IMG/VR virus record: IMGVR_UViG_2667527592_000002
Source: a virus
Taxonomy: Duplodnaviria > Heunggongvirae > Uroviricota > Caudoviricetes
DNA length: 64,000 nucleotides
Reading direction: 5' to 3' (one strand)
Shown: piece by piece, positions 284 to 47,745 of the stretch
Layout of the letters: every line of letters begins with the position of its first letter
Numbering within the stretch: the first letter of the stretch is position 1
Notes under the pieces: generated by a model
Told to the model about the DNA's origin: nothing
Seen by the model: only the letters and a program-made list of their open reading frames with translations
The model's database searches: none
Made by a program: the position numbers and the translations under genes

Positions 284-359
284 GGCCCTTTAGCTCAGTG
301 GTTAGAGCAGGCGACTCATAATCGCACGGTCACCGGTTCAAATCCGGTAGGGGCCACCA
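284..359 (+). tRNA. tRNA with CAU anticodon (Met or Ile2/lysidine type)
   Basis: 76 nt cloverleaf read by hand: acceptor GGCCCTT/AGGGGCC, D-arm GCTC-AGTGGTTA-GAGC, anticodon loop CTCATAA, T-arm ACCGG-TTCAAAT-CCGGT, encoded CCA. Confidence 0.9.
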
Positions 360-3643: not shown

Positions 3644-5151
3644 TGGCTGGCGGGCGCAAGATTAAATGCGTCACCAGCGATCCACGCTGGCGCGATATGG
3701 TAATCAAATACCGCTACAACTTTACCCAGGCTGTTGTCGATATTTTTGGGATGTTCCCCTCCCACCAGCAGCAGCAGATCATTCAGTCAGTGCAGGAAAC
3801 GGGGAGTAGGACGACCGTCACGTCCGGACACGGAACGGGGAAGTCGTCCCTTACCGCGATGTTGCTGTTGATTTTTATGATCCTGTTCCCCGATGCCCGT
3901 GTCATCATTGTTGCTAACAAGATAGGCCAGGTAAAAACAGGCGTATTCAAATACGTTAAACAGTATTGGGCGAATGCAGTTAAGCGTCATGGGTGGTTGC
4001 AGACCTATTTTGTCCTCTCTGACACCATGTTTTATGAGCGCTCCCGTAAGGGGATTTGGGAAGTTCTCTGCAAAGGTTATCGACTCGGCAACGAAGAAGC
4101 GCTGGCGGGGGAACACGCGGCACATTTGCTTCTAATTCTGGACGAAGCATCTGGTATATCTGATAAGGCGATCGGCGTAATGACCGGTGCTCTTACTGAA
4201 GAAGATAACCGGATGTTGATGCTATCCCAGCCAACAAGGCCAAGTGGTTATTTCTACGATTCGCACCATTCTCAAGCAAAAACCCCAGACAACCCGAAAG
4301 GGATCTGGACAGCAATTGTTCTTAACTCGGAAGAATCACCGTTCGTCACACCACAATTCATCAAGCAGAAGCTTCTGGAATATGGCGGGCGCGATTCTAT
4401 TGAGTACATGGTCAAGGTGCTTGGTCAGTTCCCACGAGAAATTAACGGCTATTTGCTTGGTCGTGATGAATGCGATCGCGCTGCTCGCCGCAAGGTGTTG
4501 TTGGAGAAAAACTGGGGATGGGTGGCAACGGCTGACGTTGGTAATGGGCGAGATAAGTCGGTCCTCAACATCTGCAAAGTATCTGGTCACAGGGATAAGC
4601 GGCGCGTTGTTAACTTTAAGGTAATGGAGATGCCTGGCACTATGGACCCATTGGCCTTTGCTGACTTCATATATAACGAATGTACGCCGGAAAAATACCC
4701 GAATATAACAATCGCGGTTGATGCTGATGGTTTTGGTTCTGATACGTGTGCGCAGTTGGTGCGTCGTGGTGCGAACCCGGTACGTATTCGGTGGGGAAAA
4801 CCCATGTTTGCGAACAAAGACAGGGAGCGATTTGTTAATCAGCGTGCCTACGCAAATATTATGGCGCGTGATGCCATAAAGTCAGGGCGTATGCGGATAG
4901 ACAGTGACCCTAAAACGGCAGAGCAAGCGTCAAAAATCCCCTTTTTACTGAATGAAGAAGGGAAAATGGCGATGATGCGCAAAGAGCACATGCGGCAAAA
5001 GCTAAACATCAAATCGCCTGACCGATGGGATACCTACTGCTTCACTATGCTGGTGGACTATGTGCCTGCTAATGAAGATATTGGTGCCGAAATGGCAACT
5101 TTCCGAGATCAGGTTCTGGCGGATATCGAAATGCCGGATCTGGATATATAA
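3643..5151 (+). CDS. terminase large subunit (PacB-like)
   Basis: 502 aa; Walker A SGHGTGKS, Walker B LLLILDEAS, C-terminal acidic nuclease-like region; start overlaps pacA stop. Confidence 0.7.
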   Translation: MAGGRKIKCVTSDPRWRDMVIKYRYNFTQAVVDIFGMFPSHQQQQIIQSVQETGSRTTVTSGHGTGKSSLTAMLLLIFMILFPDARVIIVANKIGQVKTGVFKYVKQYWANAVKRHGWLQTYFVLSDTMFYERSRKGIWEVLCKGYRLGNEEALAGEHAAHLLLILDEASGISDKAIGVMTGALTEEDNRMLMLSQPTRPSGYFYDSHHSQAKTPDNPKGIWTAIVLNSEESPFVTPQFIKQKLLEYGGRDSIEYMVKVLGQFPREINGYLLGRDECDRAARRKVLLEKNWGWVATADVGNGRDKSVLNICKVSGHRDKRRVVNFKVMEMPGTMDPLAFADFIYNECTPEKYPNITIAVDADGFGSDTCAQLVRRGANPVRIRWGKPMFANKDRERFVNQRAYANIMARDAIKSGRMRIDSDPKTAEQASKIPFLLNEEGKMAMMRKEHMRQKLNIKSPDRWDTYCFTMLVDYVPANEDIGAEMATFRDQVLADIEMPDLDI

Positions 5152-25494: not shown

Positions 25495-25597
25495 AATACT
25501 GACTGTTGCGCCCTGGCATTATCGTGGGGTATATTTCTACGGCACCTTAGAAAAACGGGTGCCGGGATTGGAACCCCGGATAATGCAAAAGGCGACA

Positions 25598-25622
25598 CAG
25601 ACGCCGAAAGCGTCTTTTTTTG
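25598..25622 (+). terminator. rho-independent terminator (GACGC-CGAAA-GCGTC then T7)
   Basis: 5-bp GC-rich stem, 5-nt loop, seven T. Confidence 0.6.
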
Positions 25623-25806
25623 TGTCATGCCATCGCACAGCCATACGTAGCGTTTAGCTCAGAGATCAATGGTAGTGCTGGCTGGGCTGCCGAAAGGCAG
25701 GCCGGTTCCCTTTTGCGCCGGTAGTTCCAACCCAGTCAGTGCTACCGCCATTGAGATTGGAACCTCACGCGGTAGCTCCTTAAATTAGCAAAAGGAGGCT
25801 GCCAAT
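25623..25806 (+). ncRNA. candidate structured regulatory RNA (immI/c4-like position)
   Basis: GAAA-tetraloop hairpin CTGCC-GAAA-GGCAG; repeats CGGTAGTTCC / CGGTAGCTCC; inverted GTTCCAA / TTGGAAC; immediately upstream of icd-like RBS. Confidence 0.25.
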
Positions 25807-27743: not shown

Positions 27744-28367
27744 TTATTGCCCGTATTTTTTACACCATTGCTCTGCCATTTGTTTGGCTAAAGGCCCGGC
27801 TACTGCACTGTATTCTGCTGTTTTACTTTGCACACATGAAGCAGATGGTTTTTTATTTCGCTGCTCGGTTAGTTTGCGCTCATAAGCCATCATGCTATCG
27901 AACCCGGCAATATCACTTTGGCGAAGCATTCCCTTTTTAACCAAAAATTGCTGCCCCTCTGGCACCAACGCAAGCATAAAAAGTGGTTGCAATAACTCAC
28001 CTAATCCTTGCTGGCGATACACTTCGAATTGCTGCCATCCCTGACTTAATCTGGAAAGAGTATCTTTGGTTGAATAACCTGTTTTTGTTATAGCTTTGTC
28101 CGTCAGATATGCTGTATATGCAAAAACGCAAAAGTCAGTTTTACCAATAAACTGAGTTCCAACAGGCCGTAATGGAATGCCCTCCCTCTTGCAAAAGTCC
28201 ATAATTGCCGCTTGTGAATGATCCCCACCAGCGTTATTCATAACCTGCTGCCCTGCCCTGAATTGTGCAGGTAACGCAGTTGCATTGGCAGTATTAACAG
28301 ATACGCATCCCAACATAGCCGCGAGCGCGGCCCCTAAAACCCTTAACTTCACTACACCATCCTTCAT
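27744..28367 (-). CDS. secreted/periplasmic protein with signal peptide (207 aa)
   Basis: Hydrophobic N-terminus ending ANA; ORF track. Confidence 0.5.
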   Translation of the reverse strand: MKDGVVKLRVLGAALAAMLGCVSVNTANATALPAQFRAGQQVMNNAGGDHSQAAIMDFCKREGIPLRPVGTQFIGKTDFCVFAYTAYLTDKAITKTGYSTKDTLSRLSQGWQQFEVYRQQGLGELLQPLFMLALVPEGQQFLVKKGMLRQSDIAGFDSMMAYERKLTEQRNKKPSASCVQSKTAEYSAVAGPLAKQMAEQWCKKYGQ

Positions 28368-28582
28368 GTAAACAAAATGAAGTTTTATGTTATAAAAACA
28401 ATTAACTACATCAACATGATTTAGGCCAAATTTCGGTCAAAAAATAAAATCCACAAAAAGTGGTTGACACTATTTTGGAAATCACAAACTACACATAATC
28501 CATCGCGCTAACGGCTCCCGTTGAAGGTTCTTTTGACGATTAACTTTCAGCCGAAGCGCGGTAGGGAGTCATAACGCCAAAG

Positions 28583-28609
28583 CAGGCCGCCATGTGCGGC
28601 CTTTTTTTG
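28583..28609 (+). terminator. rho-independent terminator-like hairpin directly upstream of a gene
   Basis: GGCCGC-CATGT-GCGGCC followed by TTTTTTT; start codon of next gene 27 nt downstream. Confidence 0.55.
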
Positions 28610-28635
28610 TATCCGTCATCCGTGAAGGAAGGACA

Positions 28636-29289
28636 ATGGAAAAGATCGCAATATTCAGCCTGACCACCAGCAAGCCTCAAATGCTCACTGCAATACTGAA
28701 AGACGGTGCTCTCATTATTAACGAAGTAAAACCCCTTCCCGCGTCAGCATTGGAGCAAAAGCAAAAAATTCCTCCAGCTATAGCAGCCCTGCGGAAAAGC
28801 AAATTTAAGGTACTGGTAGACGAAATTACGCCAACGATCTCCGCTGGCACCGGAGCAAGCCAGGTGACTCTCAAGACCCGTCATGCCGATGGCAGAGCAG
28901 CAATCATCGTCGGGATGGAAAGATACAGAGAGTTAAAACTCCAGAAGCTATTATCCCTGCCGCAAAATAACAAAGGTGCTTTCGAAATCCCCGACTCTAT
29001 CGTTGATACCGAATACAACGGTAACGGAGAAGAAGTCTACAGGGTGAACTGGCAGGATATCAGGCCGGAGCATATTCTGATGATCCTGTGTTGCTACGCG
29101 ACCGTATACCAAAACGTTGCCAGTGCAGATTACGTAGAGCAGATGACCGGGACAGTCGAGAAAGAGCAAAAAACAAGCATACTCGCTTCGTTCCTTTCCA
29201 TTATTGGGCATGAAAAAGTTAAAGCAGGCACCTCCCAGCCAAAGTCACTGGCTGGGAAAGAAGTTGATGAAGATACCGTGATACTTTGA
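28636..29289 (+). CDS. hypothetical protein (217 aa)
   Basis: ATG 28636 after GAAGGAAGG RBS; the track's GTG 28594 start lies inside the terminator hairpin. Confidence 0.55.
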   Translation: MEKIAIFSLTTSKPQMLTAILKDGALIINEVKPLPASALEQKQKIPPAIAALRKSKFKVLVDEITPTISAGTGASQVTLKTRHADGRAAIIVGMERYRELKLQKLLSLPQNNKGAFEIPDSIVDTEYNGNGEEVYRVNWQDIRPEHILMILCCYATVYQNVASADYVEQMTGTVEKEQKTSILASFLSIIGHEKVKAGTSQPKSLAGKEVDEDTVIL

Positions 29290-29424
29290 TCACATTAGTA
29301 GCTTTGTTAACTCCCTCAATACCAGGTAGAAGAGTAACAAAAATATTGACGCGAGTATTTGAGTGGTCAATGAAGCGTTCATAAACAGATCAATTAGCAT
29401 TAATAATTCGAAGATAACATCCAT
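29290..29424 (-). CDS. small hydrophobic protein (44 aa), type-I-toxin-like
   Basis: Hand-translated MDVIFELLMLIDLFMNASLTTQILASIFLLLFYLVLRELTKLLM; GGAG 8 nt upstream; abuts stop of convergent gene. Confidence 0.35.
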   Translation of the reverse strand: MDVIFELLMLIDLFMNASLTTQILASIFLLLFYLVLRELTKLLM

Positions 29425-29617
29425 GTCATTCACTCCGTTTAATTTTTAATCTAATGCCAGCAAAGGAAGCTGGCCCCCGCATAAAGATTAATGAAAGTCA
29501 CTTGTCACCAGTGAGGGGATTTATGAACCACATCCCCCTGAACTGGTGGCCTGTCTGTTTCTCGCATTTCACACCCTGCATACAGTTTCCCCCAGGTTAT
29601 GACTGAGAGGCTTTGTT

Positions 29618-29947
29618 ATGGGCTATAGCAGACTCGACGATAGGTACATTGAAGACGATATTTTTCGTGCGCTGTTTCACCAGGAAATGATTAAGCGGGT
29701 ATCGGAGTATCACTCTGATAATTTCCAGTACACGATAAAGATTGATGAAGTATATCGTTCAGACCTTGCAGCCTACAGGGCGTATGGCAATGCAGATTTG
29801 CGCTGGGTATTCCGGGTGCTGGTGGGCCATGAGTCAGAAATGGAAGAAATGCCCGCCGGGACCACGTTAACTCTTCCTGATGTGGCATGGCTGAGGAACA
29901 AGATCCGTGATTACGCGAGCGCGGAACCGGAGATAGAAAATGCCTGA
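29618..29947 (+). CDS. hypothetical protein (109 aa)
   Basis: ORF track. Confidence 0.45.
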   Translation: MGYSRLDDRYIEDDIFRALFHQEMIKRVSEYHSDNFQYTIKIDEVYRSDLAAYRAYGNADLRWVFRVLVGHESEMEEMPAGTTLTLPDVAWLRNKIRDYASAEPEIENA

Positions 29948-31133
29948 TTTCCTGAAAAACCAGGACGGGCGCTATATCACTGACGGCCTGTCCTCTAAGG
30001 ACTTCACGCGTTTATTCGACCTTATCAGGAAAGAACAAACCCGTAAGCGCCGACAAGCTCACCGGACGCTGACGCCAGGCAGACTTAGGAACAAATCCGC
30101 CGAAGATATTCTCAAGTTAGGGAAGAAAAAAGGCGGCACGTTCTTCACGCGAGACGACCTGAAAGGTTTCGAAAAGCTACGGAGTAAAACGCGCGAAAAA
30201 TATGACAGCAAGACGGCTGGCATCACATACGCCCAGCTGGTGGCATCCAGCCAGGCAATCGATATTAAGCGTGCAAATAACGCCGTGGATGACGGATCTG
30301 GTATCAAAAGAGCTACACCCGTATCTCTTCGCCACAATGTGATTAATATCCGCGTAGAAGCATCGGATATATCCGTCCACCAGCACCATATCGTCCGGAT
30401 ACGCTTTGAAGAATGGGATCAGATGGTTGATGACATCGCAGAAGACGATAAATCAGCTCTCAAAATAACTAAATCACTGTGCGCCGGGCGAGTGTCTTTC
30501 GATTGTGACTGTGGTCGCCATCAATACTGGTATCGCTACATCGCCACTGCGGGTAACTTTGCCCTGGCACCGCCAAAAGAATACGCCTATCCAAAAGTTC
30601 GCAACCCTAAGCTGCAAGGTGTCGCCTGTAAACACGTGATTCACGCAATGACGCGGTTACAGTCCGCCAGTTGGCAAATGAGTATTGCTCGTGCGCTACA
30701 AAAGGCTGCAACGCAAATTGCATTTGGTGACGATCGCCGCCGTACAACCAAACACTTCTCAAAAGAAGACGAGAAGGAGTTTAATCGCAATCGTAGCAGT
30801 AAAACGAACGTTGAAGCCGCCAAACGCGAATGGAGGCTCTATCAGAAGCGCCAGGCAGCTTTAAGTACAAAACTGGCAAAGGACAACGGCAAGATCGACA
30901 AACTACGTGACCAATTGACCAAGGCCAGAAAGTTGTCAGACGCACAGAAAAAACGGGCGGCAGCAAAAGAAGCGGCCTTGCAACGTGAGAAACAGAAAAA
31001 CAAGGAGCTTCAGCAACGCCTTGCCGATCAGTTCGCACTGAAGAAGCAGGCGTTCATTGATGCGCTTGTCATGGCTGGAACACCACCAGCACAAGCTGAA
31101 AAAATGTTCATGGAGTATGTAAAAAAAGCATAA
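29940..31133 (+). CDS. hypothetical protein with SWIM-type zinc-finger-like motif and basic coiled-coil C-terminus
   Basis: FDCDCGRHQ ... ACKHVIHA (CxCx(n)CxH pattern); 397 aa. Confidence 0.5.
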   Translation: MPDFLKNQDGRYITDGLSSKDFTRLFDLIRKEQTRKRRQAHRTLTPGRLRNKSAEDILKLGKKKGGTFFTRDDLKGFEKLRSKTREKYDSKTAGITYAQLVASSQAIDIKRANNAVDDGSGIKRATPVSLRHNVINIRVEASDISVHQHHIVRIRFEEWDQMVDDIAEDDKSALKITKSLCAGRVSFDCDCGRHQYWYRYIATAGNFALAPPKEYAYPKVRNPKLQGVACKHVIHAMTRLQSASWQMSIARALQKAATQIAFGDDRRRTTKHFSKEDEKEFNRNRSSKTNVEAAKREWRLYQKRQAALSTKLAKDNGKIDKLRDQLTKARKLSDAQKKRAAAKEAALQREKQKNKELQQRLADQFALKKQAFIDALVMAGTPPAQAEKMFMEYVKKA

Positions 31134-31142
31134 ACCACACAT

Positions 31143-31176
31143 AGCCTAGCTGCCTAGGCTAGGCTTTCATCTTTTT
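31143..31176 (+). terminator. hairpin AGCCTAGC-TGCCTAG-GCTAGGCT followed by T-rich run
   Basis: 8-bp stem; T-tract overlaps stop codon of convergent AT-rich gene. Confidence 0.5.
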
Positions 31177-31895
31177 GAAAAATCAATTTCCGTTTTATCA
31201 AATAAATTTGAAATATCAGCAACCAATTTATTAAAATCATGATCGCCATTATAAAGCGAAGTCTTCTTTATTGCCATTACAAAATCATATAACTTTTCTG
31301 GGGAGTCAATACCAACCCCTCTACTTTTAAAAAGCTCAATGATAACTCCAACATCATCATATAATAACTTTATTGCCGCTATAATCTCTTTTTGCTGCCT
31401 AAGAAATCTCTCAAGTTCATTTTTATTTTCATCCATAATTCTTTTGTTGAATTGTGTATCATTAATACTTTTTATTATTTCAGTCTCTTTTATTTGCAAC
31501 GCCTTTCTTTTATTTTGATCCATGTCGGCATCCAAATACCTTATCTCTGTATATATTTTACTTGTTAGCTTTGATACGCAAAGAGTGACAATCGGAGCTG
31601 CAATTGATGCAATAATTCCAAAAATAAATGGCAAGCCAAAATGATAAAACCAAGGAGACAAAACGCCTTCATAAACTAGAGGAATCTTACCTCCAACAAA
31701 TGTTACAGATAAAGTATATAGGATATCATCCTTTGACTTCATCAATATTAGTATATCTTTCCAATTAATAATTAAAAAAGAAATGAATATATATGCAAAC
31801 ACTTTATTAAAAAGCTTGTCTTTTATGGCATCTCCAAAAGATACTTTGATTAGATCATTTTCAGTCAATTTTTCTGTTGATGAATCTGTATTCAT
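31167..31895 (-). CDS. AT-rich two-TM membrane protein with cytoplasmic coiled-coil domain (242 aa); candidate exclusion/abortive-infection protein
   Basis: Locus visibly far more AT-rich than flanks; TM segments VFAYIFISFLIINW and FGLPFIFGIIASIAAPIVTLCV; K/E/I/N-rich coiled-coil C-terminus. Confidence 0.6.
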   Translation of the reverse strand: MNTDSSTEKLTENDLIKVSFGDAIKDKLFNKVFAYIFISFLIINWKDILILMKSKDDILYTLSVTFVGGKIPLVYEGVLSPWFYHFGLPFIFGIIASIAAPIVTLCVSKLTSKIYTEIRYLDADMDQNKRKALQIKETEIIKSINDTQFNKRIMDENKNELERFLRQQKEIIAAIKLLYDDVGVIIELFKSRGVGIDSPEKLYDFVMAIKKTSLYNGDHDFNKLVADISNLFDKTEIDFSKR

Positions 31896-31957
31896 ATAAA
31901 CTACCGGGATTACTAATATCTATTTTATGAAAATAGCGGTCATCCAGACCGCCAAAC

Positions 31958-32317
31958 TCAAATACCAACCAAGCTTTCAAGAGGAATGCCAAACTGGGAA
32001 TGTAAACGGCGAATCATAGGTAACGTCAAATTTCGTGTCCCATTTAGCACTTCGTAAACACGATTTGACTTACCAATCGCCGGTTCCAGATCCTTCACGG
32101 TCAGCCCTTGCTGTTCCATACGGAATTTAATGGCCTCAATAGGTGATGGTGGCTCAATTGGGTAATGTTTTTTCTCGTACTCCTCAATGAGAAGACACAT
32201 GACCTCAAAGAAATCACCTTCCGGGGTGTTCATTTCCGGTTCGTTATCGAACATCGGTTCGACCGCACGCAGTGCGGCCTCATAATCTTGTTCTGTACGG
32301 ATAGGTTTAATGTTCAT
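31958..32317 (-). CDS. higA: HigA-family antitoxin (HTH)
   Basis: C-terminal GKSNRVYEVLNGTRNLTLPMIRRLHSQFGIP matches HigA HTH region; downstream of higB. Confidence 0.8.
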   Translation of the reverse strand: MNIKPIRTEQDYEAALRAVEPMFDNEPEMNTPEGDFFEVMCLLIEEYEKKHYPIEPPSPIEAIKFRMEQQGLTVKDLEPAIGKSNRVYEVLNGTRNLTLPMIRRLHSQFGIPLESLVGI

Positions 32318-32320
32318 GAT

Positions 32321-32623
32321 TTACTCCAGTTCTATTGTATCCGCGTCAATGGCATCGTATTCCTTGTGTGTTCCAATAAATTTAACGAACATCCATCCTC
32401 GCTGATAAGCAATTGCGACAATTAACCTGTAATCATTTCCCTTAATATTGAACACCACGCGCCTGTTTTTAAGGATGCTGGCTGTCCGGTACTGTTCTTT
32501 GATCTCAGCCGGATTTTTCCAGTCAGCCTTTGTTGCTTCATCAACCCATGCCTTTAATGGCTGTTCTGCATCGGGATTCTTCGCCCAGAAATCCCTTAGT
32601 GTCTTTACCGAAATTATTTTCAT
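32321..32623 (-). CDS. higB: HigB-family toxin (RelE/ParE fold)
   Basis: FNIKGNDYRLIV ... KFIGTHKEYD parallels E. coli HigB; ATG 32623 after GAAGGA RBS. Confidence 0.8.
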   Translation of the reverse strand: MKIISVKTLRDFWAKNPDAEQPLKAWVDEATKADWKNPAEIKEQYRTASILKNRRVVFNIKGNDYRLIVAIAYQRGWMFVKFIGTHKEYDAIDADTIELE

Positions 32624-45920: not shown

Positions 45921-46047
45921 TTAAATCACATAACAACATGCGTGTTAATAGATTTTATTTTACTAAACCTATTGACTAAATCACAAAGTAGGTATTGTTA
46001 GCCCGTCAAAAGAACCTTCACGCCGCGCCCGAATTTAGGGCTTAACC

Positions 46048-47745
46048 GTGAATAAAAACATTCAGCCAGCTCGTGATCGCGAGCGCGAGATTATGAATCG
46101 GGCGGCAAGCGTCATGGCTATGACCGTCGATCCGACCACCGATGCAGCAGGCAACATGATTGCTGACCAGGCAGTAATGATGGAAAACCTGGATAAAGCA
46201 ATCCAGAAAGTGCCTATGTTTGAAGGCGTAAATCCAGAGGTCGCTCGTCAGATCACTGGTGGGTGGGCTATGTCTCTGCATGAGTATAAACGTCAACATG
46301 GTCATTACCCGGCAAGTGACATCCTGGCGAACGCACACATGGCTCTTGAACGCCTGATGACTGAATGTGCCAGTGATACCCATGAAGGCACGGGTAAGGC
46401 AATGTTTGAGTCTGTCGCGCAATCAATGCGTAGCTCTGACGGCGTAATGAAAGTTGCTCAATATGCTGCTCTAATTCTGCCTGCCTCTCTGGGCGCTGCT
46501 ACCAGTGATGCCTGTACTTTTGTTCCTTGTGATCGTGACGAGTCAAATATTTATGAACTGGTCAACGTAGCAGGCACAAAATTCGGCACCTTCAAACAAG
46601 GTGACGAACTGAATATGCAGTCAGCTGGTGTTTATTCTCAAATGAAGCGCCTGTATACCCTTTCCACTAAAGGGGATGGCAGCACCAAAACCTTCCAGTT
46701 CGACATCCAAAATTTTGAGGGACAATCCTGCCCGCTTCGCGCTGGTTATAACAAACTGCTGATCAACCGCAAACCGTCCAAAGTTGACGACGGCGATGGC
46801 AACCTTTATTTCAATGCTAAAGACAGCAAAGGCAATGCTTTCTCAGCGACTGCCAAAGTTGCCTATGACACTGGTGTCATTGACATTACATTTACCCAGG
46901 CTCCGCCAGAAGGTACTGAAATTGCTGTTCAGGTCGAAATTAACATCGAGCGCAATCCAAGCCTGATTCCTGTGATCAACCAGGCTATGCGTAAGTACGA
47001 AGTTCGTCCGTCCCAGTACGTAATTGCTTCCGAACACACGGTAATGTCCGCATCCGATTTAAGCCGTGAGCACGGCCTTGAATTAGCGGCACTTCAGTTC
47101 TCCGCGATGCGTAACTGGATCTCCCATGAAACCGACATCATGCGTCTGCGCACCCTGGTATTCCATACCGTTTATGGTCGTGAATTTGATGTGGCTCTGC
47201 CGGAAGCTCAAAACTATGAGTCCTGGGTCGGCCTCCTGCGTCACGTAGTAAACGCTCTGTCTCAAGAAATGGCAAATCGTACCCTGACAACGGGTATTCG
47301 TGGCGGCTTTGCTGGTGGTGACGCCGCGAACTTCCTGCGCTCTCTGCCTCCACAGCACTTCCAGATCGCACCAGGTTACGTTCAGTCGCCGTATGTACAG
47401 TACATCGGCACCCTGTTTGGCACGATTCGTATTTACGAAGTGCCGCAACCTGTCTGTGAGCAATTCCAGGCACAGGGATATGACTTCGGGCTGGATGACA
47501 TCTTCTTCTATGGGCGTGGCGAAGGCATCGGTAAAGCCGGTCTGATTGCTGGTGATGCAGTCCCTGCAATCCCTTACGTGCATGAAACCAATCCGTCTCT
47601 CGTTAACCGTACCACTCTCTGGGGCAGTGCCATCAACGAAGTACATCCTCGCAACGGTGAAAACTACTTCACCCGCCTGCGTCTGACTCGTGCCAAAGAA
47701 GGCGCTATCGACATGCTGTCAGGCAAGGTTAACGAAAAAAAGTGA
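46048..47745 (+). CDS. putative major head (capsid) protein
   Basis: 565 aa; first large ORF of virion block, followed by Ig-like ORF; by size and position only; GTG start uncertain. Confidence 0.4.
   Translation: MNKNIQPARDREREIMNRAASVMAMTVDPTTDAAGNMIADQAVMMENLDKAIQKVPMFEGVNPEVARQITGGWAMSLHEYKRQHGHYPASDILANAHMALERLMTECASDTHEGTGKAMFESVAQSMRSSDGVMKVAQYAALILPASLGAATSDACTFVPCDRDESNIYELVNVAGTKFGTFKQGDELNMQSAGVYSQMKRLYTLSTKGDGSTKTFQFDIQNFEGQSCPLRAGYNKLLINRKPSKVDDGDGNLYFNAKDSKGNAFSATAKVAYDTGVIDITFTQAPPEGTEIAVQVEINIERNPSLIPVINQAMRKYEVRPSQYVIASEHTVMSASDLSREHGLELAALQFSAMRNWISHETDIMRLRTLVFHTVYGREFDVALPEAQNYESWVGLLRHVVNALSQEMANRTLTTGIRGGFAGGDAANFLRSLPPQHFQIAPGYVQSPYVQYIGTLFGTIRIYEVPQPVCEQFQAQGYDFGLDDIFFYGRGEGIGKAGLIAGDAVPAIPYVHETNPSLVNRTTLWGSAINEVHPRNGENYFTRLRLTRAKEGAIDMLSGKVNEKK

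Follow-up and report, generated by a model that had tools for sequence, protein, structure and literature searches.

Why does a strong intrinsic terminator lie directly in front of a phage gene when no gene on the same strand ends there? The question is raised by a 64,000-nucleotide (nt) stretch of tailed-phage DNA, IMG/VR record IMGVR_UViG_2667527592_000002 (the window), a D6-like phage-plasmid of the P1 family whose mat region is 95% identical to that of Escherichia phage D6. In the D6 annotation the genes flanking the terminator-bearing element are a simB-like gene and mat; in the window the adjacent upstream gene (27744–28367) is simB-like and runs on the minus strand, no plus-strand gene ends at the terminator, and mat (28636–29289, plus strand) encodes the maturation control protein, with 98.6% identity to D6 Mat, 34% to P1 Mat and no domain in a Pfam search. 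The mat ATG at 28636 stands 27 nt past 28609 and is preceded by the ribosome-binding site (RBS) GAAGGAAGG. A first-pass annotation of this DNA had remarked on a hairpin and T7 run 27 nt before a start codon and on the missing upstream plus-strand gene, all of which the sequence bears out, and had suggested that the hairpin might end a short transcript or attenuate the downstream gene. Comparative evidence now supports both suggestions, with expression of the transcript still a prediction. The evidence reported here is comparative and thermodynamic throughout, comes from approximately seven independent lineages and leaves start sites and the sign of regulation as predictions; on this basis we consider it fairly probable that 28505–28609 encodes a late, leader-derived, trans-acting small RNA (sRNA) that would pair with the 5′ end of the phage's major capsid mRNA and would also serve as an attenuator for mat, a reading that does not extend to the sign of regulation.

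The terminator occupies 28584–28608 on the plus strand. Its hairpin, AGGCCGC-CATGT-GCGGCCT (28584–28602), has seven pairs, six of them G–C, and a 5-nt loop, and runs directly into a T7 tract (28602–28608), giving the segment the G+C-rich stem, short loop and immediate U-tract of an intrinsic terminator. Beside the hairpin the reverse strand offers only TGCTTTGG, which makes the terminator essentially unidirectional. It would form the 3′ end of the small RNA and act as the attenuator for mat. The terminator was conserved in every relative examined, with compensatory G–C to A–U changes in the stem of the Enterobacter and Xenorhabdus copies, and across 13 distinct sequences its helix was 100% paired, two pairs having changed on both sides. 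The 123 nt from 28490 to 28612 folded better than shuffled sequences (z = −3.4; none of 200 shuffles as good).

Conservation reaches upstream of the terminator. In an alignment of six diverged copies, approximately 28504–28612 was almost invariant, whereas the remaining intergenic region diverged; a plasmid of Enterobacter hormaechei has an unrelated upstream flank, and its terminator stem carries the compensatory G–C to A–U change. The region is present on 121 plasmids of a plasmid collection, from Escherichia, Salmonella, Shigella and Enterobacter, and the element occurs in 100 of 5,426 complete E. coli genomes (approximately 2%), always on a plasmid, in a single copy and never annotated as RNA. 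A scan of a genome collection gave matches in two species only, and a protein-based locus search for the capsid gene returned close relatives only; distant copies were located through Mat and capsid homologues. Whatever lies further upstream, element homologues sit directly upstream of mat in Klebsiella, Citrobacter, Leclercia, Pantoea, Serratia and Xenorhabdus, as the element does in Escherichia, Salmonella, Shigella and Enterobacter. P1 lacks the element, LPmat being followed directly by mat without an intervening terminator, and it is also absent upstream of the gene for a 31%-identical Mat on a Vibrio plasmid. Terminator-like hairpins as such are not rare, a lenient scan of 3 kb returning five against 3.5 expected, and this commonness would suit an ordinary insulating terminator in a divergent intergenic region whose other properties are coincidental. 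Such an explanation is contradicted by a 105-nt block that stays conserved where its flanks diverge, by the persistence of this block before mat in distant genera, and by the covariation and conserved complementarity described below, and we regard it as extremely improbable.

A separate observation concerns large IncFIB plasmids carrying sil/pco/ars resistance, which contain a remnant with the order ref, small RNA, mat, 26 and 25 and have no capsid gene; an example is the K. pneumoniae plasmid NZ_OW970446.1 (50.4–53.4 kb of the record), and approximately 129 other Klebsiella records match Mat. These plasmids have kept, or recently acquired, the RNA without its presumed target.

Single-sequence folds of most copies agreed on one architecture on the plus strand, a three-way junction (P1, P2 and P3) followed by an A-rich linker and the terminator. 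The closing stem P1 joins 28505–28519 (core GGCUCCC, 28513–28519) to 28564–28577, where GGGAGUC (28564–28570) pairs with the core. P2 is a hairpin at 28522–28549, its stem formed by 28522–28529 with 28542–28549 around a 12-nt loop (28530–28541), and P3 is a small G+C hairpin, GCCG-AAGCG-CGGU (28550–28562), that holds the motif AGCGCG(G). For the five junction-proximal pairs of P1, D6 has CUCCC/GGGAG, the Citrobacter/Klebsiella type UUCCC/GGGAA, Serratia UUCGG/CCGAA and Xenorhabdus UCUGG/CCAGA. When nine enterobacterial copies were used to build a covariance model, leaving out Serratia and Xenorhabdus, the model recovered the elements of both, full-length and at the expected place (E approximately 0.04). 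In an alignment of 13 distinct sequences, fitted to the model and hence favouring structure, 91% of cells paired and 16 of 30 pairs changed on both sides, compared with 6.7 ± 1.6 in column shuffles (none of 500 reached 16) and a maximum of 7 in slid controls; these controls agree with the structure, and so do the single-sequence folds, which were obtained independently. An alternative route, MAFFT with RNAalifold on all 11 diverse copies, misaligned the distant copies and yielded only five invariant pairs, and the covariance model was used instead. With the model, the predicted structured sRNA of approximately 105 nt, running from the predicted start to the end of the U-tract (28505–28609, plus strand), scored 113 bits, and we are highly confident that this segment is a conserved structured RNA element.

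The element belongs to none of the families to which it was compared. An Rfam search at the element gave no family, its sole match being isrK at 14.7 bits (gathering score 50), over the terminator only; against the covariance models of C4 (RF01695) and isrK (RF01394) the element scored below the gathering score and is not a member of either. As for a conserved small open reading frame (ORF), a TTG-initiated ORF of approximately 17 codons at 28521 lacks an RBS and has only seven codons in the Klebsiella-type copy. The motif AGCGCG(G) (28555–28561, plus strand) is the sole internal RNA motif that is invariant in all lineages, Serratia and Xenorhabdus included; its candidate partners are CGCGCU at the start site (28504–28509), the 5′ strand of the terminator and a CCGCGC motif in the capsid leader, none of them with statistical support.

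A search of the window for complements of the element identified a possible target. The antisense segment UGAAGGUUCUUUUGACG (28522–28538, plus strand), comprising the 5′ strand of P2 and most of its loop, is the exact 17-nt complement of CGUCAAAAGAACCUUCA at 46004–46020 on the same strand, 17.4 kb away from the hairpin loop. This site begins 6 nt after the −10 element of the major capsid protein gene (46048–47745, plus strand, GTG start; the homologue of P1 gene 23, with 99.6% identity to D6 and 44% to P1 gp23) and is predicted to be the first 16–17 nt of the capsid mRNA, 28–44 nt upstream of the GTG. The estimated chance expectation of a 17-nt match is approximately 8 × 10⁻⁴ for a 105-nt query against 128 kb. 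When a 20-nt loop query was scanned against both strands of the 64 kb, 46004–46020 was the best duplex site (−27.8 kcal/mol, z = −8.4), the next reaching −19.8 kcal/mol. D6-type contigs show free variation between the −10 and 46003 and conservation from 46004 on, position 46004 itself being C, or T in one variant, both of which pair with G28538; conservation of the capsid leader thus starts exactly where the complementarity starts, 6–7 nt after the −10. We think it likely that the pairing of the loop with the capsid leader is functional.

Further along the capsid leader, 46021–46041 (plus strand) contains the conserved CCGCGC motif. A second contact between it and AGCGCGG of the sRNA is not claimed: cognate combinations were no better than non-cognate ones, and shuffle fractions ranged from 0.00 to 0.23. 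A leader hairpin, GCCC-N7-GGGC, whose 3′ arm overlaps the Shine–Dalgarno (SD)-like AGGG, is also present; in Citrobacter, Leclercia and Pantoea its stem is kept and its loops differ.

The complementarity persisted in all seven other lineages examined, by way of compensatory and G·U changes, even where the sequence itself is unrecognizable. In place of the 17 bp between UGAAGGUUCUUUUGACG and CGUCAAAAGAACCUUCA in D6 and the window, the Enterobacter loop UGAGGGUUCUUUUGACG faces the leader UGUCAAAAGAACUUUCA with three G·U pairs, and the CP085065/AP027414 type combines the D6 loop with the leader CGUCAAAAGAAUCUUCA through one G·U. The Citrobacter type pairs UGAGGGUACUUUUGACA with CGUCAAAAGUAACUCUCG as 10 bp, a bulge and 6 bp; Leclercia pairs CGAGGGUACUUUUGACA with UGUCAAAAGUAACCUCA as 11 bp, a mismatch and 4 bp; and Pantoea eucalypti pairs UGAUGGAAUUUUUGACA with CGUCAAAAAUUCCCUCG as 12 bp, a mismatch and 3 bp. 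Pantoea PSNIH1 has the P. eucalypti loop, and its leader GUCAAAAGUUCCCUCG turns one position into G·U. The Serratia loop GGGGUUUUGCUUUUCGACA and leader UGUCGAGAAGCAAACCCC share little sequence with D6 and still form approximately 18 bp, with one G·U and one bulge, and in Xenorhabdus GAGGUUAGCUUUUUCGAC and GUCGAAAAGCCAGCCUCC form approximately 16 pairs. Compared with D6, both partners differ at six or more positions of the duplex (for example, U·A to A·U, C·G to U·A and A·U to G·C). All cognate duplexes reached −20 kcal/mol or stronger and started at nt 1–2 of the leader. In replicon-wide duplex scans, for which 20-nt loop queries were used because 40–50-nt queries were too noisy, the capsid leader ranked first among approximately 16,000 windows per replicon for Pantoea PSNIH1 and Serratia, second for Leclercia and Xenorhabdus, and third for P. 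eucalypti.

In Leclercia (NZ_CP040893.1), positions 28766–28795 (plus strand), inside a long tail gene (27864–32387), gave −28.9 kcal/mol with the RNA loop, compared with −21.6 kcal/mol for the capsid leader; this G+C-rich site may be a chance match. A G+C-rich Leclercia match from the long-query scans is not a copy of the element.

From which promoter would such an RNA be made? The first-pass annotation had placed a TTGACA hexamer at 28463; the hexamer is indeed there on the plus strand, one base further on (28464–28469). The D6, Klebsiella/Citrobacter, Leclercia and Pantoea types all keep TTGAC, at approximately 24–26 nt before the −10. The first-pass annotation had called CATAAT a weak −10 at suboptimal spacing; 24 nt separate the two, and TTGACA was rejected as the −35 of CATAAT because that spacing is unworkable for sigma-70. 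The approximately 140-nt transcript that had been derived from TTGACA gives way to a shorter one: the box AAATCACAA (28479–28487, plus strand) followed after 6 nt by CATAAT (28494–28499, plus strand; in relatives CAAAAT, AATACT, TAAAAT, TATCTT or TACAGT) would, at the usual 6–7 nt from −10 to start, place the start at approximately 28505 and make the RNA approximately 105 nt long. The window has four occurrences of AAATCACAA-N6-nAnnnT, always on the plus strand, against 0.29 expected, and none of 100 shuffles reached four; a relaxed box pattern added a fifth site. By the D6 annotation all five precede morphogenetic operons, namely the element and mat (28479, plus strand), gene 7 of the tail/baseplate operon (32708), upfC/upfB (43204), the capsid gene 23 (AAATCACAA-N6-TATTGT, 45978–45998, plus strand) and gene R of the tail-fibre operon (61986). 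Because the box recurs only before morphogenetic operons, we read it as a late promoter.

Positional homology points the same way. The annotated P1 late promoters LPmat and LP23 occupy the orthologous positions at mat and 23, and the P1 late promoter Ps lies before gene R. Late promoters of P1 consist of a 9-bp box and a −10, with no −35 (PMC10695390). The site before the element shares this build, and its box, presumably that of a late-promoter activator, corresponds in position to the −22 box of the Lpa-dependent promoters of P1 (LPmat, LP23, LPpro, LPlyz and LPdar), which have a −10 and a 9-bp box and no −35 at a functional spacing; the P1 box, however, reads AAGTGAYTW and stands 4 nt from a TAnnnT −10, compared with AAATCACAA and a 6-nt spacer here. 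In each lineage the RNA and the capsid gene share that lineage's own box variant, which is AAAGTACAA for Citrobacter and Leclercia and AAATTACAA or AAAGTACAA for Pantoea. Given the difference from P1 in sequence and spacing, we assign the box and −10, from their motif, to a late-promoter-like class and not to P1-consensus promoters, and the RNA would presumably be made late in lytic growth.

Could the two 17-bp sequences instead be bound as DNA by a single phage protein, such as Mat or a late regulator, and co-vary with its specificity? The same sequence does stand at both loci, in inverted orientation and near promoters of one class, and two sites could in principle co-vary with one protein. 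The distances from the promoters differ (+1 to +17 in one case, +18 to +34 in the other), the target sequence is absent downstream of the remaining three promoters of the class, and in the RNA gene the site forms the apical loop of a covarying hairpin. Moreover, by a hand count, approximately 9 of 12 within-genome differences between the sites are compatible with G·U pairing, and single-base bulges occur mid-site, which a DNA site would not tolerate. Because the differences are mostly G·U-compatible and bulges are tolerated, RNA pairing is favoured, and a shared DNA site appears very unlikely.

Other promoter-like sequences in the window stand apart from this class. A literal match to the P1-type late box, AAGTGGTTG-ACAC-TATTTT (28458–28476), was rejected, because copies from Shigella, E. 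fergusonii and the CP085065 type do not conserve it, whereas AAATCACAA-N6 with its −10 is conserved and recurs. It is the seventh of seven occurrences of the P1-style pattern AAGTnnnTn-N4-TAnnnT in the window (1.9 expected), the others lying at 4242, 9193, 29261 and 56787 on the plus strand and at 29485–29503 and 31786–31804 on the minus strand. One of these sites, AAGTGACTT-TCAT-TAATCT, is a minus-strand site in the interval from mat to gene 26 and is directed back at mat. They may reflect a second promoter class or an antisense transcript. A search of the window with the P1 C1-operator consensus found no site.

How might the RNA act? In the mechanism that we propose, it would be transcribed from the promoter class common to the capsid, tail, baseplate-spike and tail-fibre operons, and the loop and 5′ strand of P2 would pair in trans with the first 16–17 nt of gene 23 mRNA. 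The pairing would sequester the 5′ end of the capsid mRNA from 5′-end-dependent decay and, in several lineages, would displace a leader stem that covers the start codon. Polymerases reading through the terminator would make mat mRNA, such that the element would be an RNA gene and an attenuator at once. Direct occlusion of ribosomes is unlikely because the target lies outside the ribosome footprint; sequestering of the 5′ end is suggested because the duplex coincides exactly with the mRNA 5′ end in every lineage, and in other systems such sequestering protects mRNA from 5′-end-dependent decay. Predicted folds of the leaders add a second route: the Citrobacter, Leclercia and Pantoea targets have a 3′ part (CUCGC or CUCAC) that pairs with GUGAG at the start codon, leaving the start codon with a predicted unpaired probability of approximately 0.00, in Xenorhabdus the 3′ part pairs with the SD, and in all four masking the target somewhat raises the predicted accessibility of the start region. 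In the D6 leader a UUCACG/CGUGAA stem was seen in a 67-nt context and not in a 110-nt context. As to a chaperone (Hfq or ProQ), the A-rich linker and U-tail are no more than suggestive. We favour a positive effect on capsid production, at slightly less than even odds, with repression as the main alternative.

Repression would involve the same RNA and the same pairing, and its probability overlaps that of the favoured reading: the duplex would trigger cleavage, for example by RNase III, or otherwise lower capsid output, and in this way adjust head-to-tail stoichiometry or keep leaky capsid expression silent. The classical antisense RNAs of phages are mostly repressors, among them the C4 RNA of P1/P7, which is also encoded in the window; in the D6 and Enterobacter leaders masking the target left predicted RBS accessibility unchanged; and the D6 duplex is long and nearly perfect. 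Set against these points are the site 28–44 nt upstream of the start codon, where it would not occlude the ribosome, the gain in predicted accessibility in Citrobacter, Leclercia, Pantoea and Xenorhabdus, and duplexes that in several lineages are broken by bulges or mismatches and are shorter than a typical RNase III substrate. We consider a negative regulator possible and rather unlikely.

The attenuator part of the favoured reading concerns mat and the genes behind it. Expression of mat needs read-through of the terminator because there is no room for a promoter between the two. In Leclercia, Pantoea and Serratia, mat-26-25-7-24-6-5 form one contiguous operon directly after the terminator, and because the operon sits immediately behind it, the baseplate genes would depend on read-through as well. 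The U-tracts of Leclercia and Pantoea are interrupted (UUUUUGCUUUUC and UUUCGCCUUUUC). In P1, mat, 25 and 26 are essential, and antitermination is indicated (PMC10695390). No conserved antiterminator structure was found among the lineages compared; a 5-bp pairing, GCGGU/GCCGC, between P3 and the 5′ strand of the terminator is possible in most lineages, is invariant and shows no covariation, and is absent in Serratia and Xenorhabdus.

These facts bear on the possibility that the element acts in cis only, as a structured leader and attenuator or as a put-like antitermination RNA for mat and the baseplate genes, the capsid match having no function in trans. The terminator does lie between the sole plausible promoter and mat, ahead of the whole operon in the three genera named, the alternative pairing could form in most lineages, and there are indications of P1-encoded antiterminators (PMC10695390). 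However, the candidate antiterminator has the gaps just given, the co-variation of the P2 loop with the capsid leader in seven other lineages and the first-to-third ranks of that leader would go unexplained, and read-through can coexist with trans action. An element confined to cis is therefore clearly unlikely in our view.

Two further pairings touch on mat translation. The 3′ strand of P2, AACUUUCA (28542–28549), is anti-SD-like and could pair with the mat RBS region GUGAAGGAAGG (28623–28633) in read-through transcripts; an analogue in the Klebsiella type is CUUCC with GGAGG. Because the mat/baseplate mRNA carries the same P2 loop, the capsid mRNA may in turn act on the read-through mRNA. 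In such a reciprocal RNA link, joining the head regulon to the baseplate regulon, the 5′ end of the capsid mRNA would be the effector of an attenuator in the mat/baseplate leader: it would capture the nascent 5′ strand of P2 and free AACUUUCA, which resembles the complement of the mat RBS GAAGGAAGG, termination or mat translation would change, and head and tail synthesis could be balanced without a protein sensor. We offer this as a speculation of low probability.

Several observations weigh against a late trans-acting sRNA that doubles as the mat attenuator. The covariation was counted on a model-fitted alignment, and independent lineages are few (approximately seven). An exact 16-mer predicted a priori as the Citrobacter-type target was not found on those contigs; the first 10 nt of the prediction were right, including a compensatory T, and the real target differs by a bulge and wobbles. 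In a cross-lineage energy matrix some non-cognate pairs came out ahead: the Enterobacter RNA bound more strongly to the D6 leader than to the Enterobacter one, as did the Xenorhabdus RNA to the Leclercia leader. Start-codon unmasking was absent for the D6 and Enterobacter leaders in the 110-nt context, which makes the direction of regulation uncertain. A strong U7 terminator fits poorly in front of essential genes, unless there is substantial read-through or antitermination. Finally, the promoter box departs from the P1 Lpa box in sequence and spacing and does not conform to the P1 consensus, and promoter activity and start sites are deduced from motif recurrence and positional homology with P1 late promoters.

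How does the element compare with known systems? Closest by origin is the C4 RNA of P1/P7 (RF01695, immI), likewise a small structured trans-acting RNA of the same phage family with loops complementary to a phage mRNA. C4 controls an antirepressor, in immunity, and is cut from a longer transcript without a terminator of its own. The element, by comparison, has no sequence or structure match to C4, has its own terminator and predicted late-type promoter, and matches the mRNA of a structural gene. In geometry it resembles FasX of Streptococcus pyogenes, an sRNA that pairs with the extreme 5′ end of ska mRNA and stabilizes it: in all eight lineages the complementarity runs from the target's first nucleotides, far upstream of the RBS. 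FasX differs in being of unrelated sequence and encoded on a Gram-positive chromosome and not by a phage, and for the phage RNA stabilization is a prediction. Anti-antisense activation is known for DsrA, RprA and ArcZ on the rpoS leader and for RNAIII on hla. Like these, the Citrobacter, Leclercia and Pantoea RNAs would pair with the upstream arm of a start-masking leader stem; unlike them, the masking stem of the D6 clade is weak and context-dependent, and the stems are known here from predicted folds.

The attenuator side has parallels too. The PR′-6S RNA-tR′ arrangement of phage lambda likewise yields a short late-promoter transcript with a strong terminator, behind which lie morphogenetic genes that need read-through; 6S RNA has no known trans target, however, and its read-through needs Q at qut, whereas no Q-like factor or qut-like site was identified here. 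Leader-derived trans-acting sRNAs include rnTrpL, from the trp attenuator, and the riboswitch-derived SreA and SreB of Listeria. As in those cases, a prematurely terminated operon leader would double as a base-pairing RNA for another mRNA; the rnTrpL and SreA/SreB leaders sense translation or a metabolite, whereas no sensing mechanism or conserved antiterminator was found in the phage element.

No account of this RNA came up in literature searches, which took in the small RNAs of phage-plasmids in relation to capsid, the D6 genome paper lying outside their coverage. The element is probably an undescribed phage riboregulator and not a stray terminator. What would make it unusual is that it is directed at the major capsid mRNA of its own phage and that its gene also gates the baseplate operon. 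Phage-plasmids of the P1 family are common among Enterobacterales and are known carriers of resistance genes, and in the current view their late genes are controlled by a single protein activator, Lpa. If correct, the proposal would add a post-transcriptional layer to virion morphogenesis and a rare case of a phage riboregulator acting on its own main structural gene. The series of co-varying RNAs and targets provides a natural orthogonality set for experiments and engineering, and the essential baseplate genes behind the terminator make a long-suspected P1-like control by antitermination or read-through directly testable.

Elsewhere in the window, Rfam matched a C4 antisense RNA, an isrK-like RNA and a transfer RNA (tRNA). 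The isrK-like Hfq-binding RNA (25542–25620, plus strand; 62.5 bits, gathering score 50) is complete with its terminator and sits 45 nt upstream of a full C4 antisense RNA (25665–25752, plus strand; 76.7 bits), both in the immunity region and followed by icd and an ant/Rha-like gene. The tRNA gene (284–356, plus strand; 68 bits with the Rfam tRNA model) lies near the start of the window.

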